Assembly (NCBI GenBank): GCA_021414225.1
Contig: JAIOOX010000002.1
Span: forward strand, 236,597 to 300,596
From: Candidatus Vogelbacteria bacterium
Lineage (GTDB): Bacteria; Patescibacteriota; Minisyncoccia; Phycocordibacterales; XYD1-FULL-46-19
DNA length: 64,000 nucleotides
Reading direction: 5' to 3'
The notes beneath the pieces are model-generated. The model made no database searches, was not told where the DNA came from, and saw only the letters and a list, made by a program, of their open reading frames with translations. The translations under genes were made by a program, and so were the position numbers. This document shows positions 23,133 to 55,709 of this stretch, one piece after another; position 1 is the stretch's first letter; the number at the start of each line of letters is the position of its first letter.

Positions 23133-23171
23133 GCCAATATCATAACAATAAGCTCCAGTTTAACCAAGATA

Positions 23172-23212
23172 AAAAAAACGGCCGGTCTCGCATTGGAGAC
23201 CAGCCGGTCTAG
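23172..23212 (-). terminator. intrinsic terminator of GC-rich gene 23245-23793
   Basis: On the minus strand, the hairpin CCGGCTGGTCTC-caatgc-GAGACCGGCCG is followed by TTTTTTTT (plus strand aaaaaaaa at 23171-23178). Coordinates are approximate (±2). Confidence 0.55.
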
Positions 23213-23244
23213 ACTACACACAAACAATAGTCAGAGAAAACACC

Positions 23245-23793
23245 TCATAGACACCGAGGGGCGCCTTGATTACGCCGACGACGCCGCGGTTTTGGCGCTT
23301 TTTCTTCCTTAGGTTTCTTCGCCTGACCCCACGGGTAATTCCGCTTATCAGGATTAGAAACCCAAGCAATCACATCAGACAAGAGCTGATTAGCACAGGT
23401 TTTCACCCGAGCCTCTGGCAGAAGATTGCCAATCGCCACAATCCAAGTGTTCCTCGTAGCCCAATCGGGCACCTCCTCCTTTGGTCGGCCATTCCGACGC
23501 CAGGTGAAAGATCTATCCGCCCTTTTAGACTCGTAAACCGCGATCTGGGTGTGGCCAGCAAAACCATTCGCCAGCCCAGATCGAGCATCACCCTCGGACT
23601 CAAACATGGCAACTTCGACTGTCACCTGGTCAGCCAAACCAGACTCCTGGTCATCACGCTCCACCTTACGGGCGATAATCTGATTAAGAACTAACGGCAC
23701 ATTTAAGCCACCACCCCCAACCACGGCAAAAAATAAGACCTTCTTCGACATACCATTCAACCTCCTTAACAAAGACCTAATCAACCCAGACAA
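23245..23793 (-). CDS. hypothetical protein, GC-rich (foreign-looking) gene
   Basis: A 182-aa ORF whose likely start is the internal Met (MSKKVLFFAVVGGGGL...). Local GC is about 55% against about 36% in the flanks. There is a Rossmann-like N-terminal strand-Gly-rich loop and a basic KPKEEKAPKPRRRRR tail. It has its own terminator. Confidence 0.4.
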   Translation of the reverse strand: MSGLIRSLLRRLNGMSKKVLFFAVVGGGGLNVPLVLNQIIARKVERDDQESGLADQVTVEVAMFESEGDARSGLANGFAGHTQIAVYESKRADRSFTWRRNGRPKEEVPDWATRNTWIVAIGNLLPEARVKTCANQLLSDVIAWVSNPDKRNYPWGQAKKPKEEKAPKPRRRRRNQGAPRCL

Positions 23794-24082
23794 TTCTAAA
23801 CTTTGTGTTCAGATGCTGGTATGAGTTCGCCGTCACCATTCTCATATCAGCACCCCAACCAAAAACCTCCCTTGTGGGGAGGCCTGTGCTTGTCTTGATC
23901 TTAAATTATTTTCCTTAAAAATTAGATGAAGTTTTGTACATAGGTATCCCCAATGATTGGCCAAATAGGTGGCGCAAAGTAAAATAGCAAACCTTTGTGA
24001 AGGTTTGTCGTGTGCCAGTCAAAATTTGGGAACCTGTATTACTCATAATTTTAGTGTAACTATTATAAAAAACTTGTCAAAT

Positions 24083-24120
24083 ATAAAAAGAAAGGGCCGT
24101 CCAAACGAATCGGACGGCCC
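24083..24120 (-). terminator. intrinsic terminator of RlpA-like gene
   Basis: GGGCCGTCC-attcgttt-GGACGGCCC followed (minus strand) by a T-rich run (TTTCTTTTTATATTT). Confidence 0.6.
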
Positions 24121-24145
24121 ACATGAGTAACGGTATTGTTGAAGC

Positions 24146-24532
24146 CTAATCGGGTTGAAGGACAACCCTAGACTCCAAACTGGTCACACCCTTGTCTTTA
24201 AAGCCGAGCTTTTCAGCTCCAGCTTCCGACAAGTCAAATGTTCGGCCGCGAGCAAACGGGCCCCGATCTCTAACTTCAACCGTCAAAGTCTGACCGGTTT
24301 CGGGGTTGGTCAGCTCTACGAGCGTCCCAAATGGAAGCTCTTTATGGGCAACTGTCGTTGGATCGCGCTTATCAAAGCGCTCCCCGTTGGCCATAGGGCT
24401 ACCATGTAACTCCTCACCATACCAACTCACCACCACCATCTTGGCCTTTGATTGAGAATCAATTATTGTCTGATCCGAAGAAGCCGGACCTCCGACAAAA
24501 CCAATCCACATCACTAGGAAGAAACTACTCAC
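24146..24532 (-). CDS. RlpA-like double-psi beta-barrel (DPBB) domain lipoprotein, GC-rich gene
   Basis: A signal/TM N-terminus is followed by the DPBB signature VVSWYGEELHGSPMANGERFD...TVAHKELPFGTLVELTNPETGQTLTVEVRDRGPFARGRTFDLSEAGAEKLG. GC is elevated. A near-consensus promoter (TTGACA-17-TAGAAT) lies at about 24656-24684 on the minus strand. Confidence 0.65.
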   Translation of the reverse strand: MSSFFLVMWIGFVGGPASSDQTIIDSQSKAKMVVVSWYGEELHGSPMANGERFDKRDPTTVAHKELPFGTLVELTNPETGQTLTVEVRDRGPFARGRTFDLSEAGAEKLGFKDKGVTSLESRVVLQPD

Positions 24533-24655
24533 GACAAAACACTCCTCAAGACAATCGAGTCGACTATCTTATTTGTTTTTTAACCTGATGAAAAGTTGCG
24601 CGAGACAGTCCGCGACTCTTTTTCTAAGGTCAAATAGGTACTAAGGTCCACTAGT

Positions 24656-24684
24656 ATTCTATAACTAAGTATATCTTTTGTCAA
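24656..24684 (-). promoter_or_regulatory. near-consensus sigma70 promoter for the RlpA-like gene
   Basis: On the minus strand, TTGACA is followed by a 17-nt spacer and TAGAAT, about 120 nt upstream of the start codon. Confidence 0.45.
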
Positions 24685-24743
24685 ATAACAAGAAACCGCC
24701 CTCCAACGGTTCCTTGACGGTTCGTTTGGTTTGAGCGGTTAGT

Positions 24744-25148
24744 TTAGTGCTGAGGAAGTCCGGACTGCCGGACCTCTTCCATAAGGAGATCTTTCGTATT
24801 CCTCGACACGAGCTGCTCGATAACAGCTCGGCCAAGCAGGCCCTCAGCGGCATCAACGGAATCAACCATGATGTCCAGCCGACGGCCACAGCGGCCGTAG
24901 AAATATCCGTAAGTACGGCCGCCCTCCTCCCGCTTTTCAGCCAAGCGGAAAGTATGGTGACCGACATTGGGGGGATTTTCATCCCAAACCATCTGGTCAA
25001 CCAGACGGTTACCCGGCGTGCAACTTGGCGTCGCCAGACGGGGGTCAATCCCTCCAGAGACAAGAACAATATTGTTTCCAACAACGAGAACAATCACGGT
25101 AAACACCCTCCTATCTTGATTCAATACAACAGGATAACTATAGCCCAA
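24744..25148 (-). CDS. hypothetical protein, GC-rich gene (TTG start)
   Basis: The minus-strand frame reads ...VIVLVVGNNIVLVSGGIDP...GHHTFRLAEKREEGGRTYGYF.... The start appears to be TTG, preceded by a GGAGGGGG Shine-Dalgarno and a TTGACT-16-TATAAT promoter. Two alternative overlapping frames (24665-25093 minus, 24747-25214 plus) look less protein-like. Confidence 0.35.
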   Translation of the reverse strand: MGYSYPVVLNQDRRVFTVIVLVVGNNIVLVSGGIDPRLATPSCTPGNRLVDQMVWDENPPNVGHHTFRLAEKREEGGRTYGYFYGRCGRRLDIMVDSVDAAEGLLGRAVIEQLVSRNTKDLLMEEVRQSGLPQH

Positions 25149-25172
25149 TGCTATAGACCCCCTCCACTCTGT

Positions 25173-25200
25173 ATTATAACATTTTATATATTAAAGTCAA
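25173..25200 (-). promoter_or_regulatory. consensus sigma70 promoter for gene 24744-25148
   Basis: On the minus strand, TTGACT is followed by a 16-nt spacer and TATAAT, immediately upstream of the GGAGGGGG RBS and the TTG start. Confidence 0.45.
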
Positions 25201-25236
25201 TAAGTTTGCCCTAATACCCTTTAGCCCGGGCATTTT

Positions 25237-32696: not shown

Positions 32697-32741
32697 ACCT
32701 ACTATTTTATACCTAAATTAATAATATAAAAAGAAGTAGTT

Positions 32742-32772
32742 CAGCCTTTTTACAGGCGCGCTTTTGTGACCC
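32742..32772 (+). repeat. direct repeat DR-A (32 bp, 2 mismatches to DR-B at 36236-36267)
   Basis: CAGCCTTTTTACAGGCGCGCTTTTGTGACCC here versus CAGCCTTTTTAAAGGCGCGCTTTTGTGAGCCC at 36236. They are in the same orientation and bracket a ~3.5-kb segment. Confidence 0.6.
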
Positions 32773-32881: not shown

Positions 32882-32910
32882 TTGACTAAATAGATATTAT
32901 TGTATATAAT
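32882..32910 (+). promoter_or_regulatory. perfect-consensus sigma70 promoter (TTGACT-17-TATAAT) for GC-rich gene 32900-33286
   Basis: TTGACT at 32882-32887, a 17-nt spacer and TATAAT at 32905-32910. If the TSS is just downstream, translation probably starts at the internal Met (MGTIYCLMNHG) rather than at the ORF-track start. Confidence 0.5.
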
Positions 32911-33286
32911 ACTGGTCAGGATTTTTGGTGATTACGTTACTAACTCCATAACAGAAAGGGACGACATGGGTACCATTTATTGCTTGATGAATCATGGTCC
33001 TGGTTTAACAGACTTGATTCGCCAGATCCTCTTCGATACTGCTCAGGAAATGGTCCGCCGTGACCTGAAACGGAAGCTGGTCAGAAATGACGACTTCGAG
33101 GGGGTGGTTACCACGAAGAAAGACTGGGCCCGAATGGGAGGAGTCAGTGGATACGTCTTCAGCGCCGTCGTTGAATCCGAGGCGGGGGTGAAAAACAACG
33201 TCTCCTACCTGGTACGACCGGCCGATCTCGAAGACCTTGAGGGTGGACGTGTCAGTAGTGTAAATTACCACTCGATGCTTAATTGA
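32900..33286 (+). CDS. hypothetical protein, GC-rich gene
   Basis: The ORF is clearly GC-richer than its flanks (...GTIYCLMNHGPGLTDLIRQILFDTAQEMVRRDLKRKLVRNDDFEGVV...). Its own promoter and terminator bracket it, and the true start is probably the internal ATG near 32966. Confidence 0.4.
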   Translation: MYIILVRIFGDYVTNSITERDDMGTIYCLMNHGPGLTDLIRQILFDTAQEMVRRDLKRKLVRNDDFEGVVTTKKDWARMGGVSGYVFSAVVESEAGVKNNVSYLVRPADLEDLEGGRVSSVNYHSMLN

Positions 33287-33321
33287 ACTTTACAATCTGT
33301 GACCCCCGCCCCTCCCGAGAA

Positions 33322-33358
33322 CCGCCCCGCGCAATTCCAGGTGGGGCGGTTTTTCTTT
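33322..33358 (+). terminator. intrinsic terminator
   Basis: CCGCCCC-gcgcaattccaggt-GGGGCGG followed by TTTTTCTTTT. Confidence 0.65.
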
Positions 33359-33511
33359 TACTTTTTTATTATCAAACCTTTTTAGCTTCAGGTTTTTAAT
33401 AGATATTTTGACGAGTGAACCTTTTCGAGATAGAACCCAGCCGATGTGTTACCAAATAAGGTCATTTCGACTATAAATCTAGAGATCCCAATGAGCCTTT
33501 TAGAGCGTTAG

Positions 33512-33811
33512 TTATTCAAGTAGCCTTTTAAAGACTTCTTCATATCCTGTATAGCCACGATTACCACGGTTCCCAGGATTTCCTGGTGAACCGGGACTTC
33601 CTGGGTTCCCTGGATTTCCAATATTCCCATAATTTCCGAGCCTCTTATCTAAAACCATATCTCCTTCGAGTTCACCAACGTATTGACCAGTTAATTTGTG
33701 CACATGGGTACCATTAATTTGACCCACAGGATTACCCTTCATGTCGTAAATGAATTTATCCCTGTAGAAACCTATAGCACTCCCCGATTGTTCATATAAA
33801 TAATTTGTCAT
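33512..33811 (-). CDS. small hypothetical protein with short collagen-like G-N/S-P-G repeat tail
   Basis: The ORF (ORF-track 33512-33856) was trimmed to the Met 7 nt downstream of the RloC-like stop. It contains GNPGNPGSPGSPGNPGNRGNRG. Confidence 0.3.
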   Translation of the reverse strand: MTNYLYEQSGSAIGFYRDKFIYDMKGNPVGQINGTHVHKLTGQYVGELEGDMVLDKRLGNYGNIGNPGNPGSPGSPGNPGNRGNRGYTGYEEVFKRLLE

Positions 33812-33818
33812 AGATAGA

Positions 33819-36029
33819 TTAAATATTATAGGTTGCATAATGGTCTTTATCAACACTTTTTATCACTTCAAAGAAATTTTTAATTCTTTGTGAACTTGCC
33901 TGCAAGACAGTTACATCATATTTATCAAACCCTAAAAATTCATGTGAACCATGATTTATAAATCGATACATCACTTTCTCTTCTTGAGCGACTTCTTGTT
34001 CTATAACATCCTTGTCTGCGGGATTTGAGTTGTCTAGTCTATATTTTTTGTATTTGGCGTACAGCTGAGCAAGTTTGCTTTTCAGGTCGCCGTGTCCATA
34101 CTTAAAGTGTAGAAATGTTTCCAAAGCTCGTCTGAGTAAGTTTGCGGCCAAAATAGCATCGTCTAAGTCTATACTGTCCTTCACTTCATTCAATTTTGTT
34201 ATTGAATATAAATAGTCAGATCTATATTTTTTAAGGTTGTCATCCAACTCTTGAATTGTTGAGCCGGTATTCTTTAGTGAGATTTGAAAAAATTTAACTA
34301 AATCGTCTCTAATTTTTCCGTCTTTTCTGTAACTTTGGAGAAGGTGGCCAAAAATATCTAAATTGTGAGAAAGAATGAAATATTGTCTGTCAGGACGACT
34401 TTCAATTTCTCCCGATAGTATTGCAAACACCTGAAAAAGTGAGTCAGAATCAAGACTTGAAACAGGATCATCAATGACTATAACGGAATTCTTATCAATC
34501 TGATTATCTTCATCATTGATACTTAAAAGAAAATATGCCAAAGCTAAGAAGTTTCTCTCTCCCTCACTCAAGGAACTGAGTTCACACTTAGCACCATCAC
34601 GTTTGAGCACATAACCAACTTCTCCATCTGAATCATCCAAAGATATTTCTTTATATGGGAAAGTCGATTTGAGTAGTCTGTTTATTCTATCTGCAGGAAT
34701 TTGAACATTTTTAGCCACCTTTTTAAGCTCTTTTAAATCTTCTTCAATTAGTTTTATATCTCCTTCGTGCTTTGACTTTTCTGCTTGACAGTCTTCATAC
34801 TCCTTCTTCTTTGAGGTGTATTTTATATATGCCCTTGCGACATAATCTTTTTCGATACTCCAAGCAATTGAACCAACGTCGAAAGTTTCTTCTTCGACAA
34901 AAAGATCATCAAAGGTTATTTTTTCGACTATTTTTTTTATGTCTTTTCTCTTTTTTTCCACTCTAGATCGTAATGTGAGAAATAGAGTCTCTAAGGTTTC
35001 CTTTTTAGTAACGTAAAAACTCTCGCATATTCCAATCTCACTTATTGCGCTCTCAGTTTTTGCACTTATTCCATCCAAGGCGTTACTGAGTTCCATTACA
35101 TCTTCAGAAAAATGTTTCAATAACTCGTCTTCGTTGGTAATTTCTGACTCACAAAAAAGACAGTGGTTTAACTTTTCGGTTTCGTTTAGTTTATGAATAC
35201 CAATTCCTTCCCTTACCCATTTTTCTTCTAGACTTCCGTCAGAATATTTTGCTAGTCTTTTTGATTCTTTGTAAACAGGAATAAAAGTGAGGTATTTATT
35301 AATTTTATCTGTTTTTTCAACCACCCAATCATTCCATTTTTTCAAAGTCTTATACTCTCTCTCCTTTACAGATAGATTAGATAAAGTAGATATTCTTTGT
35401 TTTAGTTCAGATTCCTCACTTATAAAGTCATCAACTTGTTTTCCTTCGATGATTGCTTTTGATAGCCACTCTATTCTTTTTTCAAAAGAAGATTTGATAT
35501 AAGAATTATATAAACCATTACTTTCTACCACAGGATCTTTCCTTAAATGTCCAATTCCACTTATTTTTCGTATGTTTTCAGAAACTTCTTTTGATATGTC
35601 ATCGTACTCGTTCTTGCAGGCCTTTAGTTTACTTAGCTTTTCCTTTGCACCTTCAAGTTCCTTTTCTTTTTTTGAAAAATCAACACCAGCGGAACCAATT
35701 GCTACAACATATGGGAGATGGGTTTGGTCAATTGCCTCTTTTATATAGTCTTCATTAAAAACGCGAATCTTATCAGTGAAACCTGAAAGTTCACTGTGTT
35801 TCTTAGCGCCGGTATCAAATTGAGTAGTAAATTGTGCACCGTTAATTTTATCTTCAGAATTAATTATCCCTTTTTCATATGACCTAATTATTCTAGAAAC
35901 TATTGTTTTTCCAGAACCATTCCATCCCAAAATAATATTTACCTTGTCGTGAAAATCTCCAACGGTCGCATCCCAGATGAAGTTCTTAAATGCACCACAT
36001 TTGATATTTTGGATTTTCTTTATTTTCAC
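33819..36029 (-). CDS. RloC/PrrC-like ABC-type ATPase (AAA_13-like) with coiled-coil CxxC hook and C-terminal candidate anticodon-nuclease motif
   Basis: An N-terminal P-loop (ILGWNGSGKTIVSRI) is followed by a long coiled coil containing HCLFCESE (CxxC, Rad50/RloC-like zinc hook). The ABC signature LSEGERNFLALAYFL, Walker B/D-loop VIVIDDPVSSLDSDS and an H-loop (FILSHN) follow. The C-terminal ~170 aa contains LLRRALETFLHFKYGH...FINHGSHEF, an R-x3-E...H arrangement like the PrrC/RloC ACNase triad. Confidence 0.6.
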   Translation of the reverse strand: MKIKKIQNIKCGAFKNFIWDATVGDFHDKVNIILGWNGSGKTIVSRIIRSYEKGIINSEDKINGAQFTTQFDTGAKKHSELSGFTDKIRVFNEDYIKEAIDQTHLPYVVAIGSAGVDFSKKEKELEGAKEKLSKLKACKNEYDDISKEVSENIRKISGIGHLRKDPVVESNGLYNSYIKSSFEKRIEWLSKAIIEGKQVDDFISEESELKQRISTLSNLSVKEREYKTLKKWNDWVVEKTDKINKYLTFIPVYKESKRLAKYSDGSLEEKWVREGIGIHKLNETEKLNHCLFCESEITNEDELLKHFSEDVMELSNALDGISAKTESAISEIGICESFYVTKKETLETLFLTLRSRVEKKRKDIKKIVEKITFDDLFVEEETFDVGSIAWSIEKDYVARAYIKYTSKKKEYEDCQAEKSKHEGDIKLIEEDLKELKKVAKNVQIPADRINRLLKSTFPYKEISLDDSDGEVGYVLKRDGAKCELSSLSEGERNFLALAYFLLSINDEDNQIDKNSVIVIDDPVSSLDSDSLFQVFAILSGEIESRPDRQYFILSHNLDIFGHLLQSYRKDGKIRDDLVKFFQISLKNTGSTIQELDDNLKKYRSDYLYSITKLNEVKDSIDLDDAILAANLLRRALETFLHFKYGHGDLKSKLAQLYAKYKKYRLDNSNPADKDVIEQEVAQEEKVMYRFINHGSHEFLGFDKYDVTVLQASSQRIKNFFEVIKSVDKDHYATYNI

Positions 36030-36235
36030 ATTTATATTCTAACAAAAATAACCTCAAATGAAGTATATTTTGCATACTTCTCGTGCTAGCTGTTGTTGGT
36101 GATTTTCTATTTGTTGTGGTCCACAATAATTTGTTTTTCGTCAAAAACAAATTTTCCAGACCCGGCCTCGACTTTTTTGTTGCTACAAAAACATGTCTCC
36201 GGCTTCACAAAAGCGAAAAAGCCTGAGGCAGTCCA

Positions 36236-36267
36236 GCCTTTTTAAAGGCGCGCTTTTGTGAGCCCAT
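36236..36267 (+). repeat. direct repeat DR-B (partner of DR-A); embedded in a larger inverted repeat CACAAAAGCG...CGCTTTTGTG
   Basis: See DR-A. The 10-bp arms CACAAAAGCG (36209-36218) and CGCTTTTGTG (36252-36261) flank it. Confidence 0.6.
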
Positions 36268-36443
36268 TGTACTTTGAATGGAACACCATGAAAAGCACCG
36301 TCCTTAGATGGGAGGAGGTTTTCGGAAGCTTGGGTAATTTGCGAGAATTAGTCCTTACTTAGAGGGATTTTCAAGCTTTCGGAATCATTTGAACTTACCC
36401 AAGTGGTATTAGAACAAGAAAGCACGTATCTATGCTTGATTAC

Positions 36444-36464
36444 GTATACCCCCTAGGGGTATAC
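36444..36464 (+). promoter_or_regulatory. candidate CsoR operator (GC-rich palindrome) overlapping csoR promoter
   Basis: GTATACCCCCTAGGGGTATAC is a perfect 21-bp palindrome 9 nt upstream of the csoR ATG. It resembles known CsoR operators (ATACCC-N-GGGGTAT type). Confidence 0.5.
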
Positions 36465-36472
36465 TAGTAGAT

Positions 36473-36745
36473 ATGAGACAAGATATTAAAACAAAAGCCG
36501 CCCGCCGCTTAAAAATCGTTGAGGGTCAGGTGCGGGGACTACAGAAAATGGTTGAGGAGGAAAAATATTGTATAGACATCATCACCCAAGCTTCTGCTAT
36601 TAAGGAAGCATTGACTGGTGTGGAAGATTTAATACTTGAAAATCACCTCACTACCCACGTTATACATCAAATAAAACACGGTAAGGAGCAACAGGCCGCA
36701 ACCGAAATACTTAAAGTTTATAAGCTAGCCCAACGCAAAAAATAA
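36473..36745 (+). CDS. csoR: CsoR/RcnR-family metal-sensing transcriptional repressor
   Basis: A DUF156 four-helix fold (RLKIVEGQVRGLQKMVEEEKYCIDIITQASAIKEAL) with conserved Cys/His ligand positions (C-x...H-x3-C pattern). Confidence 0.8.
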   Translation: MRQDIKTKAARRLKIVEGQVRGLQKMVEEEKYCIDIITQASAIKEALTGVEDLILENHLTTHVIHQIKHGKEQQAATEILKVYKLAQRKK

Positions 36746-36748
36746 TTT

Positions 36749-37372
36749 ATGTATACATGCCCCATGCACCCAGAAGTAGTGAGCGATAAACCGGGCAAAT
36801 GCCCGAAGTGTCATATGGACCTCGTACCGCAAAACTCAACGCCAAAAGTCCACCATATGACCGACGACAAAGGCCTTGGAAATCTCACGTGGAAAAGCTA
36901 CATGCCCCTTATTGCTATTGGAGCCGTTCTTCTCCTTGCATCTGTTACCATTTCAATTCACGATGCTAATTTAGGTGTCTTTGCAATTGAAAAGAGCATG
37001 TCCTATTTCATGATTGGGTTCTTCCTTACGTTTGCCACTTTCAAACTGATGGACCTACCCGGTTTTGCACACGGGTATCAAACCTATGACCTCTTGGCGA
37101 CAAAAGCGCCGTGGTATGGATATGTCTATCCGTTTATAGAATTATTCTTTGGGCTAGCAATGATACTTATACCGTTCTCTCGTGAACTCTTAGTCGCAGA
37201 GTTCGTTGTAATGGCATTTAGTGGTCTTGGGGTAGCAATCAAAATTGCTAAGAAAGAGGAGTTTATGTGTGCGTGTCTCGGTACGTTCCTAAAAGTTCCT
37301 CTCACGAAAGTAACTTTGATTGAAGATTTTGGAATGGCGGCACTTGCAGGGATAATGTTTTTCTTAATGTAG
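36749..37372 (+). CDS. membrane protein with N-terminal heavy-metal-binding motif (MYTCPMHPE...CPKCHMDL), putative Cu-handling protein
   Basis: The YTCPMHPEV...GKCPKCHM motif is typical of the Cu/Ag-efflux-associated heavy-metal-binding domain. Four TM helices follow (DoxX/MauE-like). It sits directly downstream of csoR. Confidence 0.5.
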   Translation: MYTCPMHPEVVSDKPGKCPKCHMDLVPQNSTPKVHHMTDDKGLGNLTWKSYMPLIAIGAVLLLASVTISIHDANLGVFAIEKSMSYFMIGFFLTFATFKLMDLPGFAHGYQTYDLLATKAPWYGYVYPFIELFFGLAMILIPFSRELLVAEFVVMAFSGLGVAIKIAKKEEFMCACLGTFLKVPLTKVTLIEDFGMAALAGIMFFLM

Positions 37373-37373
37373 T

Positions 37374-37745
37374 ATGCAATTTCTAAAACAAACAATTTTA
37401 ACTCTCGCACTCGTTGCCTTTGTAGGAATGGCGGGTTTTGGAATGTTTGCAATGACCGGACATCACCACGAGCCGGGGTGTCCATTCATGCCGGGAGAGC
37501 AAGCAATATGCGAGATGAATATCTTTGACCATATTTCCGCTTGGCAAAGTGCGTTTACAGGAGTTTTGCCGTCCATTTTTATACTTGTTCTTATAGCCGC
37601 TTTATTCTTTGTACATTGGTTTAACTACGACAAACCGCCCGACTTGCGAGGCAAGGTTGGTCCTAGGAGTAGTCCCGGTTTAAACAGACCTAATCTATAC
37701 CAAGAACTATTCTCTAGCGGCATACTTAACCCAAAAGCACCCTAG
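37374..37745 (+). CDS. small membrane protein with His/Cys/Met-rich segment
   Basis: GHHHEPGCPFMPGEQAICEM lies between two TM helices, inside the copper cluster. Confidence 0.35.
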   Translation: MQFLKQTILTLALVAFVGMAGFGMFAMTGHHHEPGCPFMPGEQAICEMNIFDHISAWQSAFTGVLPSIFILVLIAALFFVHWFNYDKPPDLRGKVGPRSSPGLNRPNLYQELFSSGILNPKAP

Positions 37746-37783
37746 CCACTTGTAATCTCTCTTATTAATTAATCTTAAAATAC

Positions 37784-38203
37784 ATGCAAAAAAATACAGG
37801 AATTATTATCGCAATTGTTACTCTCATTGTAGGTCTCGGACTTGGTTATGTCGTAGGTACAAACAAAGCTCCTACGGCCCCACAAAGCGCCGCAGGGGGT
37901 CATATGATGCCTGACGGCTCAATGATGGGTAATGGCGGTGGCTCTATGAGCATGGCCGAAATGATGGCTTCAATGAACGCTGAACTGAACGGTAAGACAG
38001 GCGACGAGTTCGATAAGGCATTTATCAGTGAAATGATAATGCACCATCAGGGGGCGGTAGAGATGGCGCAATTGGCTTTGAAGAACGCTAAGCACGCCGA
38101 GATTAAAACTCTGGCAAACGCAATTATCTCTGCACAAAATAAAGAAATTGCAGATATGAAAGCGTGGCAAGAAGCATGGTATGGGAGCGAGACCAACAAC
38201 TAA
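37784..38203 (+). CDS. DUF305 family protein with Met-rich N-terminal segment (copper-resistance associated)
   Basis: DUF305 blocks (FDKAFISEMIMHHQGAVEMAQLAL; KTLANAIISAQNKEIADMKAWQ) follow an MMPDGSMMGNGGGSMSMAEMMASM Met-rich motif of the kind seen in Cu(I)-binding periplasmic proteins. Confidence 0.7.
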   Translation: MQKNTGIIIAIVTLIVGLGLGYVVGTNKAPTAPQSAAGGHMMPDGSMMGNGGGSMSMAEMMASMNAELNGKTGDEFDKAFISEMIMHHQGAVEMAQLALKNAKHAEIKTLANAIISAQNKEIADMKAWQEAWYGSETNN

Positions 38204-38276
38204 TTAAAAGTAGATAAGGTAAAAATGGCCCTGCAAATTGCGGGGTCATTTTGTTTATTGGGCTAATCCGAGAACA

Positions 38277-39272
38277 CTAAAGCGATGGGTGTTGCCCGTC
38301 TGGCATATCTAATCCCATTTCTCGGACGTAATCGCGGAGTTTTCGATTTTTATGAACGATATCTTTTTCAAACTTATCAATTTTTTCTATCAAGCGATTA
38401 TCAGTTGCCGGATTGGCAATGGCCCTTGCTTCAACAAGAAGTTTATTTGCTCGACGAAAACGCTGGAATGAGGGCATTTTTGTCGCAAGGTTGTAAATAG
38501 TATGTGCTTGTTCCGATGGCTTATTCGCAAGTTTGAACTCTACAATTGCTTTCTCAAAATACTGAATACATTTGTCGCGAGACAGGTTAATTTTTTTGCG
38601 CTCTTCGCGACGATAAAGATAAAGGTCTAGGTTCCACCGACGAACGAAATGTGTATTTGCAATCTTGGCTTTAAATTTTCCGCCTTTCTGAAAATCGAGT
38701 TTATCAGTCAGATATTTGTGGCTGTATACATCTCCAATCGTGGAGAATGCATGACCTCGAAACTCGTGGTCCAGTCCCTGTTCTGCTCTTTCAATAACAA
38801 GTGCAAGGGTCGTGTCTGCCTCACGTTCAAGCTCTTTACGCTTTTCGCCTAACGCTTCATATTCTTTCTTATCTTTCTCGGTCGAAAAACCTATCCATCC
38901 AAAGACCTCTGAAGCAAGCATCAAGTTTTTTTGCCTGTAGATTGCATCAGATAATTTAAGTCCAAGAAAGAAACATTTTTTACCCAACAGGTAGCTTTGT
39001 ACACTTTCGTTTCCCGTCCGCTTAGCAATTTCTATCCCCTCATTTGCGACAGCGAGTAGTTTGTCTCCCTCGGTGACATGGTCTAAAACTCCTAGCATTG
39101 CAAGGAGTACATTAATCCGAACAGAGGGGTCTTGCGTTGTTATTGTCTCAAGCAAGCTTCTCGCTTCATCATATTCGCCGAGGTTATACAGCTCGACTGC
39201 TTTTTTCAGTTTATTTTGGTCTGGCATAGTATTCACGTTGTCGAAATCGCGCGATACGAGCTGGAATTTCAT
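38277..39272 (-). CDS. hypothetical protein with N-terminal TPR-like helical repeat; overlaps upstream DUF4238 gene by 62 nt
   Basis: A 331-aa ORF (...AVELYNLGEYDEARSLLETIT...) with no recognisable catalytic motif. It is co-directional with and overlaps the DUF4238 gene in a different frame. Confidence 0.4.
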   Translation of the reverse strand: MKFQLVSRDFDNVNTMPDQNKLKKAVELYNLGEYDEARSLLETITTQDPSVRINVLLAMLGVLDHVTEGDKLLAVANEGIEIAKRTGNESVQSYLLGKKCFFLGLKLSDAIYRQKNLMLASEVFGWIGFSTEKDKKEYEALGEKRKELEREADTTLALVIERAEQGLDHEFRGHAFSTIGDVYSHKYLTDKLDFQKGGKFKAKIANTHFVRRWNLDLYLYRREERKKINLSRDKCIQYFEKAIVEFKLANKPSEQAHTIYNLATKMPSFQRFRRANKLLVEARAIANPATDNRLIEKIDKFEKDIVHKNRKLRDYVREMGLDMPDGQHPSL

Positions 39273-40128
39273 GCCTTAAAAAGCGTAGTAGGAAAACGGG
39301 GTCAAGTGGCAATCTTCGGAACCAGCGCCTCTTCAACTTTGGCGAGTTTGCAATGAAGTATTGATGTGAGTATCCGTAGACCATTCGATTGTCATTGTGC
39401 ACCATATCTTCGGTAGCAAACAAATATCCACGAACATTGTTTATCCAACTGAAACAAACAGAGATTTCAGGTGAGAGTGGCATTCGCACTTCGACCCCTC
39501 TCTGTCCAAACGCAGGAGGGAAAAAACGTTGAAATTGCATCTGACTGTTGAATAGGTATGCGGGTGCATCTGACGTAATGAAAGACACGCGTTTATTTTT
39601 CGTGCAGAGAAATGCAACATTCATTTTAGATAGGATTTCCGCAATTTTAGGGGCCATTTCTATTACGCTCATTTTGTGAGCATCTTTCTTTGCTTCCTCC
39701 CATTCCTTAGAAGATTTTGCCGGTGCTCCGTGCACTGTTTCGAGTTGCTTTGCCCAACCAATCATTTGGTCCATTTGGTTCTCAACGTGTTCTTTCTGCT
39801 TCAAGGTTCGCTGGAGCATGGCGGCGACAAACGCACAAAAAATAGCGTGCTCGTAAGGTGTAAGCGGGAGCTTGTGCTTAATCTTTTTTTCAAATATGTC
39901 GGCATACTCACTTTCAAGTTGCGCCAACGACTTTTCAATAGAATAGTCACCTTGGAATGTATAAACATCTGTTTCCGTGAGCACGCTACGGATATTCTGC
40001 CTTTTGCCTCGCTTACTTTTACGCTCAAAAATCCAAACACACGGCCCGAAGTTGCTCGGTACTTTTGGGTCTACAAACTGCTTTAAATAACATTTCGGAA
40101 TGGTGTGCTGGTTCTTCGGGTTTGACAT
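39211..40128 (-). CDS. DUF4238 family protein (Rst_DUF4238-like anti-phage candidate)
   Basis: The N-terminal hallmark H-T-I-P-x-x-Y-L-x-x-F (NQHTIPKCYLKQF) and an internal FITSDAP block are characteristic of DUF4238. Confidence 0.6.
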   Translation of the reverse strand: MSNPKNQHTIPKCYLKQFVDPKVPSNFGPCVWIFERKSKRGKRQNIRSVLTETDVYTFQGDYSIEKSLAQLESEYADIFEKKIKHKLPLTPYEHAIFCAFVAAMLQRTLKQKEHVENQMDQMIGWAKQLETVHGAPAKSSKEWEEAKKDAHKMSVIEMAPKIAEILSKMNVAFLCTKNKRVSFITSDAPAYLFNSQMQFQRFFPPAFGQRGVEVRMPLSPEISVCFSWINNVRGYLFATEDMVHNDNRMVYGYSHQYFIANSPKLKRRWFRRLPLDPVFLLRFLRHEIPARIARFRQREYYARPK

Positions 40129-40183
40129 TGTCTCTATATCATAGGGTATTTGCAGAATAATAGATATTTGGCGTTAATTGGAG

Positions 40184-40320
40184 TTAGGCATTTTCAAAAA
40201 ACCTATATCTTTCAATGTATTTTCGACTTTTACGATTTTCTAAAGCCAATAAATCAAGGGTTTTGCATAAATAAAGAGATTTTAAGGTTAGGCATTTTTA
40301 CAAAACCTATATTCTGCAAG
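40184..40320. repeat. two ~30-bp imperfect direct repeats (40184-40216 and 40288-40320) in divergent intergenic region
   Basis: TTAGGCATTTTCAAAAAACCTATATCTTTCAATG versus TTAGGCATTTTTACAAAACCTATATTCTGCAAGC, 104 bp apart. They may be regulator binding sites or iterons. Confidence 0.4.
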
Positions 40321-40371
40321 CTCTTTTAGGAAAGATGCTTTTTCTAACCGTAAGAAAATGGTATAGTAATC

Positions 40372-40496
40372 ATGCGTCCCACAGTAGTCGAATAATGTAC
40401 GAGGTCTTTTGCTTCCTATGGAAGCCCAATTGCGGGCTGAAAGGGGGGCATTCGACCGCCACAATTGGTTGCCTCGTGCAATTCAGTACTGTGGGA
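40372..40496 (+). ncRNA. candidate structured non-coding RNA of unknown class (multi-helix, closed by a 12-bp long-range helix)
   Basis: P1 is CGTCCCACAGTA (40372-40383) paired with TACTGTGGGACG (40485-40496). P2 is GTACGAGG paired with CCTCGTGC, including a G-U that favours the plus strand. P3 is the hairpin GCTTCC-tat-GGAAGC. P4 is CCAATTG(CGG)...(CCG)CCACAATTGG enclosing a purine-rich CUGAAAGGGGGG loop. Only short ORFs without coding character overlap it. Confidence 0.35.
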
Positions 40497-40576
40497 CGCC
40501 GGCTCCGAGTGTCTCCCTTTTTGTATTGTCGAACAGAAAAGGGGTTGGGCTGATTACCCACCTAGTTTTATAAATT

Positions 40577-40831
40577 ATGCTCGTAGTAATTATTGTTCTG
40601 CTCTTACTACTTCTTGCAATCGCCGCCCCTGTGCAAATAATGGCGAACAAAAAGAAGTTGAAGCAAATGGACACGCTAATTGAAGCGTTCGAGGCACAAA
40701 GCTTCGAGACGCCGGAGGCAAAAGAAAATGCCAAGCGTGTGTTAAAGAAAAAGCTCGTTGGATTGAAAGCAAAGATACTTGCTGACAAGAAATCAACGGA
40801 AATCGCGGACGACAAACTCAATATTCTTTAA
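40577..40831 (+). CDS. small hypothetical membrane-anchored Lys-rich protein
   Basis: An 84-aa ORF with an N-terminal TM (LVVIIVLLLLLLAIAA) and a K/E-rich tail. Confidence 0.3.
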   Translation: MLVVIIVLLLLLLAIAAPVQIMANKKKLKQMDTLIEAFEAQSFETPEAKENAKRVLKKKLVGLKAKILADKKSTEIADDKLNIL

Positions 40832-40856
40832 GCTTAGAATAAGCTAGAATTAGAGA

Positions 40857-41525
40857 ATGATAGCGTCCCATAGTCAAAACAAGACCCTTAATCGTCTTGC
40901 AAAAATCTTAGAGTTTGTAGAGACGCAATACAGGTCACACGCGGACAAGGAAACATTCTTTTTGGGTGCCAGTGAGATTTTCCGCTTCGACCCACTTCTA
41001 AGCGATATGGATTTGCTAAAAATGGGTTTTGAGAAAATCACTGACGACACAGGGGGAAATGTAAAGATTGAGTTTCGGCAAGGATTACCCGAACGAAACA
41101 CAGCTGACCCGACCCATGTTAGTTACGAACTTTATGTTTGGTTCTATGTTGAGGACCAAAATAAGTTCAGGGACTATCAAAGCTCTGTGAGGTCAAGAAT
41201 TGAGAGAGAAACCAAGGCGGTCCAATTCATTCTCGACAGTCAGGGCTTCTTCTACCCAGAGGGTACGGGGCCAGAGAATAGGCACTCACTCAAAAGAAAT
41301 AGCAACCGTTACCAGTTGCTTTACTTGTTAGCTAAGGAAAACAGATACATTGCAACAAAGGAACTTGCGGAAAAGCTGAATGTCTCGGCTCCAATAGTGA
41401 GAAAAAGGATAGGTGAGATTAGAAACATTATCGCCAAAAAGTGGGAGTTGTCGCGTGAAGCATTGTTTGAAAGTGACAATGCTTCCGGTTACCGAGTAAC
41501 GAATGTCACTCTCCAAGAAAGCTAA
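40857..41525 (+). CDS. hypothetical protein with C-terminal winged-helix/HTH DNA-binding domain
   Basis: The C-terminus NRYIATKELAEKLNVSAPIVRKRIGEIRNII is HTH-like (DeoR/MarR-type recognition helix). The N-terminal domain is unknown. It lies upstream of the recombinase. Confidence 0.4.
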   Translation: MIASHSQNKTLNRLAKILEFVETQYRSHADKETFFLGASEIFRFDPLLSDMDLLKMGFEKITDDTGGNVKIEFRQGLPERNTADPTHVSYELYVWFYVEDQNKFRDYQSSVRSRIERETKAVQFILDSQGFFYPEGTGPENRHSLKRNSNRYQLLYLLAKENRYIATKELAEKLNVSAPIVRKRIGEIRNIIAKKWELSREALFESDNASGYRVTNVTLQES

Positions 41526-41668
41526 AGAGGTATACCTCACCGAAACTACTACGGCTATAGCTGTTAACAACTTCGCAGAGAACTAAGCAAACAAGGGATT
41601 TTAGGTTTTCTCGTTCCGTACGCACGAGGGATTGCGGAGGTACGGGGTGGCTTCAATAGAGTTAGGGC

Positions 41669-41866
41669 ATGGTATCGTTGCCCGATTTTAAAAAAGCACT
41701 TGGACCTCTTGGCGACAAACTCACAGAAAAAGAGATTGAGCGTCTCAATATTCTTTCAGCTCAACTTGCTGGTTCTCTTTTCAATATGTGGAGCCGAAAA
41801 CTAAAAGAGAGTAGGCAGAATGAGAAACCAATAATTTATGGAAACGACCAAATACGCAATAATTGA
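41669..41866 (+). CDS. small hypothetical protein overlapping recombinase start (possible directionality factor)
   Basis: A 65-aa ORF ending 29 nt inside the recombinase ORF. It has no known domain. Confidence 0.25.
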   Translation: MVSLPDFKKALGPLGDKLTEKEIERLNILSAQLAGSLFNMWSRKLKESRQNEKPIIYGNDQIRNN

Positions 41867-43547
41867 CTGTCGCGTTAGTGACCCGCAACAGTTGAAAGGT
41901 GGAAGCTTGGAAGACCAAGAGGTTATTGGTCGTGCAACAGCAATGCGCTACAACGCAACAGTTGCGCATGTTTTTAGAAAACCACATTCAGCAACAACTA
42001 CAGAAAGAGATGATTTGGATGAAGTCATAGATTTTATTAAGAAATATCCTCATCAAATTCATTACTATATTTTTAAATGCATTGACCGATTTACCCGTGC
42101 CGGCTATCCCGAATACGAAAGAAGAAAAGCAGAATTAGAAAAACTAGGAGTTCAAATTATTGACTCCTACGGCGTAATTCAGCCGATACAAAACACACTC
42201 GACCACCTTGGTCAAAAATATAAATGGAGCATGTATTCTCCAAGTGAAATTGCTGAAATGATTTCGGCATATCAAGGAAAAGCAGAAGCAAGAGAGATTT
42301 TAACTCGAATGGTAGGTGCCGAAATCCGTCTTGTGCAAGAGGGGTTTGCTGTAAGACGCGCACCTGATGGATTACATAACAAGCGTATTTTTATTAATGG
42401 AAAAGATAGGGTCATTAGAGAAGCCGGAGAAAAAGCTCATTATTTTCAAAAGATGTATGAACTCCGAGCAGATGGTATTGATGATACGCAAATCGTCAAC
42501 ATTTTAAATGCCACAGGTTTCAAAACAAATATCTATACACGGTGGGATAGGAGTGACCCAGAACATCCTCGAAAAATTGGAACCAGAGGCGGTAAGGTTC
42601 TTACTGTAAAGCAGATGCAACGATATTTACTCCAAACAGAGTATGCCGGTGTAAGTTGTGAGAAGTGGAATAAACACAAGCCGGTCAGAACGCAGTACTT
42701 TGACGGCATTGTTTCTATAGACACTTTCAATCGAGCCAATCGTGGAAAAGTTTACATAAAAGTATCAGAGGGTGACGAGATTGAAGTGCTCTACAACTAC
42801 TCTCCTTGGGGCCGTGTAAAGCGTCTAAGAGACAATCCGATGTACCCATGGAAATGTATAGCGTGTCCTTTCTGCAATAAATCAATGCTCGGTAGTCCGT
42901 CTACTGGAAAGTCGGGTGCTAAGTTCCATGGGTATCATTGTGGTGGTTCAAAATCAGGCGACAGAGCACATGAATATTTCCGTCTTGATAAGAAAACTTT
43001 TGAGAGTAATGTGAAAAATTACTTAGACAGTTTGAAATTCGAGGATGGATTTTTAGCAGGATTGGAATTGCACCTACTTAGCGAATATCGAGAAAGAGAA
43101 AAAGAAGTTGTACTCGAATCTTCTGCAATAAGCCGAACGGTATCTGATTTAAAAGCAGAGTTGGCCCAAAAGTTGGAAGCATTCGGTTTTGCTGAAAGTC
43201 CAATCACTAGGAAAATGATTGAACAGCAAATTGCTGAACTGGATGAACAGATAAAGGGAGCAGAGAGCCAACGAATGGAAATTGAAGTAAATGAGAAGAG
43301 TATCCGTGTCTTTGTACGCTATGCAAAATACGTAATGGAACACCCGGCGGAAATCCTTACAGAAGCTTGTGATTTACAGGGTCGCCGTGCTCTTTTGGGT
43401 CTGTTCTTTGAACAAACCCCGACCTATAACGAAATACTTAATGGAACACCAAAATTAACGGCTCTTTTCAAGCTTTCTGAAGAGTTTAAGGGTAATAAAA
43501 CCCAACTGGTGACCCTACGGGGAATCGAACCCCGATTTAAGCCTTGA
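41838..43547 (+). CDS. large serine recombinase (phage-integrase type resolvase/invertase family)
   Basis: An N-terminal resolvase catalytic domain (YAIIDCRVSDPQQ...) is followed by a recombinase domain, a zinc ribbon (CIACPFCNKSMLGS...HGYHCGG) and a C-terminal coiled coil. The last 41 nt are antisense to tRNA-Glu. Confidence 0.85.
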   Translation: METTKYAIIDCRVSDPQQLKGGSLEDQEVIGRATAMRYNATVAHVFRKPHSATTTERDDLDEVIDFIKKYPHQIHYYIFKCIDRFTRAGYPEYERRKAELEKLGVQIIDSYGVIQPIQNTLDHLGQKYKWSMYSPSEIAEMISAYQGKAEAREILTRMVGAEIRLVQEGFAVRRAPDGLHNKRIFINGKDRVIREAGEKAHYFQKMYELRADGIDDTQIVNILNATGFKTNIYTRWDRSDPEHPRKIGTRGGKVLTVKQMQRYLLQTEYAGVSCEKWNKHKPVRTQYFDGIVSIDTFNRANRGKVYIKVSEGDEIEVLYNYSPWGRVKRLRDNPMYPWKCIACPFCNKSMLGSPSTGKSGAKFHGYHCGGSKSGDRAHEYFRLDKKTFESNVKNYLDSLKFEDGFLAGLELHLLSEYREREKEVVLESSAISRTVSDLKAELAQKLEAFGFAESPITRKMIEQQIAELDEQIKGAESQRMEIEVNEKSIRVFVRYAKYVMEHPAEILTEACDLQGRRALLGLFFEQTPTYNEILNGTPKLTALFKLSEEFKGNKTQLVTLRGIEPRFKP

Positions 43548-43581
43548 GAAGGCTCCGTCCTAACCGTTAGACGATAGGGCC
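43507..43581 (-). tRNA. tRNA-Glu (anticodon CUC)
   Basis: Reverse complement: GGCCCTA-TC-GTCT-AACGGTTA-GGAC-G-GAGCC-TTCTCAA-GGCTT-AAAT-CGGGG-TTCGATT-CCCCG-TAGGGTC-A-CCA. It folds into a cloverleaf with a 7-bp acceptor stem, GTTCGATTC T-loop, anticodon CTC and encoded CCA. Confidence 0.8.
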
Positions 43582-43637: not shown

Positions 43638-43666
43638 TTGACTTTTTATATTATATATGCTATTAT
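43638..43666 (+). promoter_or_regulatory. near-consensus sigma70 promoter (TTGACT-17-TATTAT) for GC-rich gene 43719-44207
   Basis: TTGACT at 43638-43643, a 17-nt spacer and TATTAT at 43661-43666. Confidence 0.4.
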
Positions 43667-43718
43667 TAATATTAGACAACCGGACGACTAGTATAACTAG
43701 CGTCTATAGGAGCGAACA

Positions 43719-44207
43719 TTGTATTACAAAGCCAACCTCGTTACCGGCCAGGTAGAGCCCATCGGGCGCGATCACCAGAGCGTCTGGGATTACCCTGGAG
43801 TCAAGGGCAACGGCCAGCACTTCCAGTTGCCCGGGCACGCCCTGGTCGAGTGGACTGGCGATGATCGCATGAAGCTCTGGCATCCCGAAACCGACCAAAC
43901 CAGCGGCCATGTCGACATTTGGTACGAACACGAGCGCCGCGACGGCAAGAACGGTATCCGGATCGCAAATTACGGCGATCACGAACTGACCTTTTCGTCA
44001 GAAGGGCAGCTGAAGTACAGCTGGCCGTCCGGAGGCTGGAGTTTGATTCGCGTCATCGACGCAGTCGAGTCCCATCTCCAAGAAACGCTTGGTGGCAACC
44101 AACTGCATCTTCGCATGTGGATCGAGCTCAACTTCTACCCGGCCGGCGCGCCGAGCCTGAAGGAGTTGCAGGAAATCCAGCAGCGAAACGAGCAGGCCGC
44201 TGCCTAA
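43719..44207 (+). CDS. hypothetical protein, GC-rich gene
   Basis: A 162-aa ORF that is clearly GC-richer than the flanking AT-rich DNA (MYYKANLVTGQVEPIGRDHQSVWDYPGVKGNGQHFQLPGH...). Its own promoter and a GC-rich terminator bracket it. Confidence 0.4.
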   Translation: MYYKANLVTGQVEPIGRDHQSVWDYPGVKGNGQHFQLPGHALVEWTGDDRMKLWHPETDQTSGHVDIWYEHERRDGKNGIRIANYGDHELTFSSEGQLKYSWPSGGWSLIRVIDAVESHLQETLGGNQLHLRMWIELNFYPAGAPSLKELQEIQQRNEQAAA

Positions 44208-44238
44208 GTCCAACATCGACTTCACCAGCCAACCACAC

Positions 44239-44290
44239 ACCCCGCCCAGCGACACGAGTCGCCGGGCGGGGTAAATTGTTTCTATTTTTT
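44239..44290 (+). terminator. intrinsic terminator
   Basis: CCCCGCCC-agcgacacgagtcgcc-GGGCGGGG followed by a T-rich run (TAAATTGTTTCTATTTTTTT). Confidence 0.5.
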
Positions 44291-44296
44291 TAAAAC

Positions 44297-44650
44297 CTAT
44301 TTAGCTGGTAGGGCTAGAGTGGTGGAGTTTATTATTTTATTAGTTGATGGACGATAAATAATCAACTTTTGTGACTGAATGAAGACCAAAATCTTGTCAC
44401 CATTTTTGGTGCCAGCAAAGAAAGGTTCATTCATTATTTTAGTTTCATCCACAATCGTAGCCACAGCTGGTATTTCAGCTGGCAATTCCATAATCAAACT
44501 AACTCGTTCAACCAGATCGGTCGCTTCTTTGGCGATTAAAGCCTCAGCATTATTGACGTCTTGCTTGGAAGAACCAAAGTAGTATCCCCCACCAATCAAG
44601 ATCAGGATTGCAACCACCACAATAATTATTTTTTTATTTTTTGGACTCAT
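44297..44650 (-). CDS. small hypothetical membrane protein
   Basis: A 117-aa ORF with an N-terminal TM (KIIIVVVAILILIGGGYYF). Confidence 0.35.
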   Translation of the reverse strand: MSPKNKKIIIVVVAILILIGGGYYFGSSKQDVNNAEALIAKEATDLVERVSLIMELPAEIPAVATIVDETKIMNEPFFAGTKNGDKILVFIQSQKLIIYRPSTNKIINSTTLALPAK

Positions 44651-53276: not shown

Positions 53277-53279
53277 TCC

Positions 53280-55706: not shown

Positions 55707-55709
55707 TCC

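Follow-up and report, generated by a model that had tools for sequence, protein, structure and literature searches.

Five GC-rich, self-contained gene units in a Candidatus Vogelbacteria genome may be accessory modules of mixed age

The DNA analyzed here is a window of 64 kb (64,000 nucleotides) within a 409-kb contig of a metagenome-assembled genome of Candidatus Vogelbacteria, which belongs to the Candidate Phyla Radiation (CPR; Patescibacteria). It contains five small GC-rich genes, each accompanied by a predicted promoter and terminator of its own, which are referred to below as units: P1, an RlpA-like gene and P3 on the minus strand, and P4 and P5 on the plus strand. Along the minus strand, AT-rich methyltransferase, AAA_28 and HAD genes are followed by P3, the RlpA-like gene, P1, RmuC (MCE9628757), L21, RecR and DnaB in that order, and the three genes of the cluster are annotated at NCBI as K8Q91_02055 (P1), K8Q91_02060 and K8Q91_02065. 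The two units on the plus strand lie around a tRNA-Glu gene and an integrative island. All features are listed in Table 1. The window was compared with the related loci L001–L007, L011, L013 and L014, of which L006 and L007 were taken as CPR by gene content alone. A Logan assembly of SRR15633504 (L009 and L010) was 100% identical to the window across the regions examined.

Table 1. Positions in the 64-kb window of the five units, their predicted signals and the features around tRNA-Glu. GC and GC3 (GC content at third codon positions) refer to the coding sequence of each unit; ORF, open reading frame.
Feature	Position	Strand	GC	GC3	Description
P1 ORF	23245..23751	-	0.53	0.52	168-aa lineage-restricted orphan protein, Arg-rich C-terminal tail
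P1 leader	23752..24046	-			~295 nt, non-coding; terminator-like hairpin 23882-23866 with T5 at 23865-23861; second hairpin 23853-23813
P1 promoter	24053..24080	-			TTGACA-16-TACACT, 10/12; ~290 nt upstream of P1; predicted transcription start near 24046
P1 terminator	23171..23206	-			11-bp stem, 8 GC pairs, T8; scan match 23206-23179
RlpA-like ORF	24146..24532	-	0.51	0.50	single-domain DPBB protein, hydrophobic N-terminus
RlpA leader	24533..24648	-			116 nt, two hairpins, the second immediately before the ribosome-binding site
RlpA-like promoter	24656..24684	-			TTGACA-17-TAGAAT, 11/12
RlpA-like terminator	24094..24120	-			from scan; conserved in L001, L002 and L005
P3 module	24687..25236	-	0.53	0.54	ORF 24744-25148 (NCBI start 25124)
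P3 promoter	25173-25200	-			TTGACT-16-TATAAT with TG
P3 terminator	24689-24716	-			from scan
P4 module	32882..33359	+	0.51	0.59	ORF 32966-33286 (106 aa)
P4 promoter	32882-32910	+			TTGACT-17-TATAAT, 11/12
P4 terminator	33320-33359	+			direct sequence reading
P5 module	43638..44297	+	0.59	0.75	ORF 43719-44207 (162 aa); exchangeable payload 43668-44230
P5 promoter	43638-43666	+			TTGACT-17-TATTAT with TG (extended -10), 10/12
P5 terminator hairpin	44239-44272	+			direct sequence reading
tRNA-Glu(CTC)	43507..43581	-			insertion hot spot; P5 on one side and, ancestrally, P4 on the other
Integrative island	33423..43547				~10 kb, between P4 and tRNA-Glu

Promoters were sought by scanning the 64 kb for TTGACA-N16-18-TATAAT and counting sites with at least 11 of 12 matches. 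The scan gave five sites in all, and three of them precede the RlpA-like gene, P3 and P4; by our own rough estimate, the chance that at least three of five fall in the units, which make up about 5% of the window, is about 1e-3. The promoters that an earlier reading of the bare sequence (the original prediction) had placed before the RlpA-like gene and P3 were both recovered among these five. The same reading had described the P4 promoter as perfect, where the scan scored it one position short, and had missed the promoter of P1, which is conserved in L001 and L002. Its TTG start for P1 at 23793 was revised to an ATG at 23751. It had also stated that each gene ends in a GC-rich stem-loop followed by a T-run; the stem-loops were recovered, but behind P3 and P5 the T-run is weak or displaced. 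The P1 terminator is kept in relatives, with a compensatory change within its stem. From the promoter consensus alone, the units may be highly expressed.

The mean GC content of the window was 41.3%, and its 59 backbone ORFs gave a GC of 0.405 ± 0.036 and a GC3 of 0.361 ± 0.057, with a maximum GC3 of 0.484. The five units stand 2.5 to 6.8 standard deviations over the backbone in GC3, which makes them the clearest GC3 outliers of the window, and their synonymous codon usage is atypical, lying 1.9 to 4.9 standard deviations below that of the backbone. This per-gene comparison upholds the initial impression that the cluster and two further cassettes are GC-richer than their surroundings. Such a composition might be ascribed to ordinary native genes, whose GC content is set by the amino acids encoded or by translational selection at high expression. 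Indeed, GC is also raised at the first and second codon positions (GC1 and GC2; P1 has a GC2 of 0.47), the promoters are near consensus, and the RlpA-like gene is ancestral. However, GC3 is raised as well, so that amino-acid content is insufficient as an explanation, and ribosomal-protein genes have a low GC3 (0.33 for L21 in the window, and 0.26–0.33 for L20, L35 and IF3 in L007), which indicates that GC-ending codons are not the pattern of highly expressed genes here. Moreover, close relatives differ in whether they carry P3, P5 and P1. An origin as ordinary native genes is hence very unlikely.

Codon-position GC exhibited a coding-type periodicity in all five units, with GC1/GC2/GC3 values of 0.65/0.40/0.54 for P3 and 0.63/0.39/0.75 for P5. 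A leave-one-out codon model built from the remaining GC-rich genes preferred the annotated frame for all five; for P3 this frame scored +12.5, the in-register antisense frame +6.2 and the other four frames −22 to −63. All five units are treated here as protein-coding, P3 and P5 putatively, from their composition. The folding of their mRNAs was compared with two kinds of shuffled sequence. Against dinucleotide shuffles, the z-score was −6.4 for P3, −3.3 for P1 and −3.1 for P5, the backbone mean being −0.6. Against synonymous-codon shuffles, it was −6.1 for P3, −3.9 for P1, −2.3 for P5 and −2.2 for the RlpA-like gene, and three backbone controls ranged from −0.1 to −0.6. The same synonymous test gave −4.7 and −5.7 for the RlpA genes of L005 (2992-3372) and L006 (2449-2820), and −3.2 for the ORF of L011 described below. 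These values would fit stable, structured mRNAs of the units, without amounting to proof of them.

Such folding raises the question of whether some units, chiefly P3, are structured non-coding RNA genes whose ORFs are accidental. P3 folds beyond both kinds of shuffle and is built as a chain of near-perfect 7–12-bp hairpins, and neither P3 nor P5 has a protein homologue or was called by one of the gene callers. The codon-position periodicity and the codon model argue against this, as do a ribosome-binding site correctly spaced from the start codon and the demonstrably coding nature of P1 and the RlpA-like gene. In addition, tRNA-Glu was the only feature of the whole window to pass Rfam 15 at gathering scores, and a search at E ≤ 10 of five sub-regions (the units and their leaders) returned nothing at E < 0.03, everything lying far under the gathering scores. 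Accidental ORFs in RNA genes are therefore highly improbable.

The RlpA-like protein matched DPBB_1 (PF03330) over residues 35–117 with 57.1 bits, against a cut-off of 28.8 bits (E 2e-15); it is named an RlpA family protein at NCBI, and 99 homologues were detected. Its clear DPBB_1 domain and hydrophobic N-terminal segment are shared with the RlpA/DPBB_1 family of peptidoglycan-binding lytic transglycosylases. In contrast to the canonical septal-ring RlpA, it is a single-domain protein of 122–128 aa. No match to the SPOR domain (PF05036), which is present in some of its database relatives, was obtained in the protein at E ≤ 1, and the chain stops about 10 residues past the DPBB domain; the lipobox cysteine is absent from its hydrophobic N-terminus, MSSFFLVMWIGFVGGPASSDQ. 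From these features, it is probably an exported or secreted cell-wall protein. The gene is monocistronic in three further loci, namely, the close relative L005, L006 and L007, each time behind a TTGAC(A/T)-type promoter (recognized by eye) and a long leader and with a terminator of its own. Its GC content exceeds that of the neighboring genes in L005 and L007; in L006, where the backbone itself has about 47% GC, it does not.

P1 was found to have five homologues with 66–87% identity, and in all four of the contexts fetched they adjoin RmuC; an alignment search of metagenome and genome contigs gave no match. Its ratio of non-synonymous to synonymous divergence (dN/dS) was 0.17–0.27, and P1 and the RlpA-like gene together gave 0.17–0.28 against relatives, which represents purifying selection. 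An AlphaFold2 model of P1 reached a predicted local distance difference test score (pLDDT) of 57, and a Foldseek search against the PDB yielded generic Rossmann-like matches, all with E > 0.02 and none significant; the fold is probably α/β Rossmann-like, at low confidence. The C-terminal tail of P1 (23245-23330 in the window) is read in another frame in P0012 and P0013, from L004 and a Logan contig. The frame-shifted tail is still arginine-rich (KRTGRRSRGRRRIRT... versus AKKPKEEKAPKPRRRRR...).

Both genes are preceded by leaders that are conserved beyond the coding sequence. Relative to L001, the P1 leader is 89% identical and the RlpA leader 81%, versus 69% for P1 and 60% for the RlpA coding sequence. 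In the P1 leader, the loops of the hairpins vary between relatives and the stems are retained. The RlpA leader is kept in L001, L002 and L005 and contains compensatory changes at three pairs among four sequences. The P1 leader could act as an attenuator or in the manner of a riboswitch, or could give rise to a distinct RNA of about 185 nt. A 43-codon leaderless ORF at the predicted P1 transcription start was considered and rejected, as its substitutions are mostly non-synonymous and its DNA is conserved far beyond synonymous sites elsewhere.

The history of the RlpA–P1 block was examined by synteny and synonymous divergence (dS). The block RlpA-P1-RmuC-L21-RecR-DnaB is whole in L001, and shorter stretches of it occur in L002–L004, all of them contigs of other samples. 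Against L002, dS was about 0.2 for the RlpA-like gene, P1 and RmuC alike. Against L001, near saturation, it was 0.25–1.5 for four backbone genes, 1.4 for P1 and 2.1–2.3 for RlpA. Since the two genes are syntenic, match the backbone in dS against L002 and are GC-rich in every relative examined, they do not appear to be recent imports. The RlpA-like gene is demonstrably old and, as its predicted signals suggest, monocistronic. Third-position substitutions in P1, polarized by close triplets, were balanced (9 vs 11 and 16 vs 10). An earlier polarization with a distant outgroup, which had suggested compositional equilibrium, was set aside because RmuC gave an implausible 31:5 excess of AT>GC changes on every branch; such an excess is typical of parsimony homoplasy, so the test was repeated with the closer triplets and the claim weakened. 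Altogether, the GC-richness of RlpA and P1 looks long-lived, and neither gene drifts clearly from GC to AT. It need not be the decaying mark of an import, in that it persists in both genes at saturating synonymous distance.

The junctions of this region are variable. The −35 element of the RlpA promoter is the exact point at which homology with L001 and L002 begins, with a different gene upstream of it in each. In L005, the methyltransferase homologue lies ahead of RlpA with an unrelated spacer in between, and homology returns at the RlpA promoter. The RlpA of L005 is 62% identical with a saturated dS, versus 0.36 for RmuC and 1.4 for the methyltransferase, a contrast suggesting that the allele was replaced within the lineage. 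L005 also lacks the P1 module, its RlpA terminator running directly into the RmuC promoter, and P3 is absent from L001, L002 and L005. An exhaustive phmmer search with P3 against 1.84 billion representative proteins retrieved itself and three repeat artefacts (kinase-fragment, fn3 and F5/8 proteins), and no relative of P3 was found in metagenome contigs or viral contigs. On this comparison, P3 reads as an insertion known only from the two assemblies of this sample, and the region as a within-lineage replacement hot spot. A further search with concatenated queries (P1+P3 and P4+P5) found the P1 family and P5 itself and missed the clusters containing P3 and P4, so that this word-index search is incomplete.

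These results bear on the reading initially proposed, a recent acquisition from a high-GC donor, in which the GC content would be an unameliorated donor signature. Part of that proposal stands: the units are self-contained and compositionally atypical, and several are true insertions or replacements. The foreign GC3 and codon usage, with the GC3 of P5 as its extreme, agree with it, as do the restriction of P3 and P5 to this sample, their absence or replacement in close relatives, and the position of P4 and P5 beside a tRNA used as an integration site. The donor origin was not supported. The RlpA-like gene and P1 are syntenic, equal to the backbone in dS against the closest relative and GC-rich even at saturating dS, and the third-position changes of P1 are balanced. 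The best named relatives of the RlpA-like protein belong to Desulfobacteria, Bipolaricaulota, Planctomycetota and Myxococcota at 40–47% identity, and none is actinobacterial, contrary to the suggestion of Actinobacteria as a source. P3 had no relative among representative proteins and metagenome contigs, nor P5 among species-representative genomes, nor either of them among viral contigs and phage and plasmid records, so that no donor can be named. Furthermore, the promoters are AT-rich and native in style, and the promoter and terminator of P5 pre-exist at its locus. High-GC import is thus unsupported for RlpA and P1; for P3 and P5, it may have taken place. As an account of the units as a whole, recent import is unlikely.

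P4 and P5 are associated with tRNA-Glu. Copies of P4 with 94% identity occur in L013 and L014, immediately next to tRNA-Glu; in a search that was non-exhaustive for this unit P4 was known only from such near-identical copies, and it gave no match to viral contigs. The island is absent from L013, and since P4 joins the tRNA directly there, P4 and P5 ancestrally flanked one tRNA hot spot. The large serine recombinase of the island (41838-43547) overlaps the tRNA 3′ end, and a degenerate copy of that 3′ end lies at the far end of the island (33414-33445). With a recombinase by the tRNA 3′ end, a partial repeat and its absence in a relative, the island has the properties of a tRNA-integrated element. 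Its cargo includes a PDC-S06/AAA_13 candidate defense gene (33819-36029, PADLOC E 5e-82), a DUF4238 gene, a beta-flower protein and CsoR/DUF305 metal genes (CsoR-type; Pfam). A 40-nt direct repeat, 88% identical between 32733-32772 and 36225-36264 (GAAGTAGTTCAGCCTTTTTACAGGCGCGCTTTTGTGACCC), was also observed; the first copy precedes the P4 promoter, the second lies within the island, and the repeat occurs in L013 as well.

P5 is a singleton, with no relative in species-representative genomes or viral contigs, and its single-sequence structure prediction was unusable (pLDDT 46). Its locus is informative by comparison with L011, which is 97.6% identical to the window through a 117-aa gene and the P5 terminator hairpin, and which retains tRNA-Glu and, over 26 nt, a sequence matching the P5 promoter at 92%. 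An unrelated 209-aa ORF with a GC3 of 0.60 lies between this promoter and the terminator in L011. The borders of the swap lie just past the −10 element (43668) and about 10 nt short of the terminator (44230).

This arrangement could be thought to reflect a dedicated cassette-exchange system, in which promoter and terminator slots are fixed and the payload is moved site-specifically or through RNA, in the manner of an integron or shufflon. The near-identical flanks around unrelated payloads speak for such a system, other breakpoints also fall at promoter or terminator edges, and a serine recombinase lies beside the tRNA. Nevertheless, the five units have no attC-like or other repeat in common, the P5 promoter sequence occurs once in the window, and the recombinase belongs to the separate 10-kb island across the tRNA. 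The exchange is seen in one genome pair, for which illegitimate recombination followed by homologous replacement via the flanks fits equally well. A dedicated exchange system is decidedly unlikely on this evidence. A related and rather unlikely possibility is that expression slots are fixed in the lineage, the payload being swapped as a unit for unrelated, GC-rich, strongly folded orphans and the leaders representing new cis-regulatory RNAs.

The original prediction had alternatively regarded the units as a family of mobile expression cassettes and had proposed looking for a shared upstream element or flanking repeat. That comparison gave nothing in common: among the five units, no common direct or inverted repeat, flank, upstream element or protein similarity was detected, which leaves the family without support. 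A tblastn search against 50,697 phage records and plasmid records found no match, PHROGs returned a generic DPBB domain as its sole match, and PADLOC matched none of the five.

Phage morons, autonomous transcription units placed within prophages, are defined by their own promoter and terminator and a GC content unlike that of their neighbors (PMC3594210). The units resemble them in being single small ORFs with these signals and a differing GC, inserted between genes that are adjacent in relatives and often orphan; P3, the P1 module and P5 (as a replacement) are additions relative to relatives, and RlpA is not. They differ in lying among chromosomal housekeeping genes (DnaB, RecR, L21 and RmuC) and metabolic genes, outside any phage or prophage and with no phage genes nearby; in addition, two of the five are of old, vertical descent. 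The units were also compared with tRNA-linked islets and islands. P4 and P5 flank tRNA-Glu, the same tRNA hosts the serine-recombinase island, and the content of the site varies among close relatives. Unlike such islets, however, P4 and P5 lie outside the island without an integrase or att repeat of their own, and the RlpA/P1/P3 site is not beside a tRNA. Integron cassettes are usually promoterless and carry attC sites near an IntI integrase. The units are similar to them as single-ORF elements swapped at a fixed site, but every unit has its own promoter and terminator and no attC-like repeat was found; a Pfam/domain scan, which covered about half of the ORFs of the window, detected a serine resolvase-type enzyme as the only recombinase and no IntI.

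The reading that we favor, somewhat more probable than its negation, is that the units are self-sufficient accessory modules of mixed age at variable sites, rather than a recent import from a high-GC donor. Each module would consist of a promoter, an optional leader, a small ORF for a putatively accessory protein and an intrinsic terminator, insulated from its neighbors. Modules would be gained, lost or swapped whole at a few sites, namely, the methyltransferase–RlpA–RmuC junction and both sides of tRNA-Glu, with breakpoints falling on promoter and terminator edges. Their ages would range from the old RlpA, through P1 as a lineage-level orphan and P4, shared by this strain and its ~94% identical copies, to P3 and P5, confined to the assemblies of this sample. 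The composition might be upheld by selection favoring mRNAs that are stable, structured and strongly expressed, or by GC-biased recombination in hot spots; alternatively, the genes may be shared through a mobile gene pool of the lineage that is richer in GC. Other GC-rich ORFs occur in relatives where the window has none (L001 3907-4725 and 2-673, L005 1145-1312 and L011 1492-2121; GC3 0.52–0.60). Those at variable sites include a His_Phos_1 gene between RmuC and L21 in L001 (GC3 0.59), a 55-aa ORF in L005 (0.52) and the 209-aa ORF of L011, so that GC-rich accessory genes seem to be a habit of the whole lineage.

Several observations weigh against this module reading. The promoters and terminators were called by consensus matching, with a sigma-70 consensus that is assumed for CPR. 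The coding status of P3 and P5 derives from their composition, both are known from the assemblies of one sample, and the Logan gene caller did not call either region, leaving gaps of 725 and 750 nt (L009 and L010); that it skipped them means that protein-only databases can miss such GC-atypical genes. The mRNA structure of P1 is inconsistent among its orthologues, with z-scores from +0.5 to −3.0. The amelioration test is based on small counts and a biased parsimony, and one all-position contrast in P1 gave a mild GC>AT excess (13 vs 24). The P5 swap is taken from one genome pair and a 26-nt promoter match, and since no phage context was found, "moron" can serve as an analogy only.

Some other ORFs of the window also deviate in composition. 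One at 13658-14137, with a GC3 of 0.47, was not accepted as a sixth unit, because its promoter matched only 9 of 12 positions and its composition signal was weaker. Three very large ORFs (808–945 aa) in 50628-58547 have 47–49% GC, with a GC2 of 0.50–0.54 that exceeds both GC1 and GC3; they are probably a different kind of outlier, driven by amino-acid content. The minus-strand ORF at 48596-49225 (GC2 0.60) gave a folding z-score of −3.8 against dinucleotide shuffles and −0.6 against synonymous ones, and its signal probably comes from composition or repeats and not from RNA structure.

CPR genomes are tiny and streamlined, and to our knowledge the organization and expression of their flexible gene content are poorly understood. 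Bacterial accessory genes are usually AT-richer than the core. Against this usual pattern, the accessory fraction here would include compact promoter-ORF-terminator modules that are GC-richer than the core. For annotation, this suggests caution in taking a GC outlier for a recent import; two of the five can be shown to be old. The RlpA and P1 leaders are candidate new regulatory RNAs, in a phylum for which, as far as we know, almost none have been described. If lineage-fixed slots do exist, they would imply that CPR have an as yet undescribed mechanism of cassette exchange or mobile pool of GC-rich genes; and if the promoter-to-terminator replacement seen at the tRNA-Glu slot should prove general, it would point to an unrecognized route of gene exchange.

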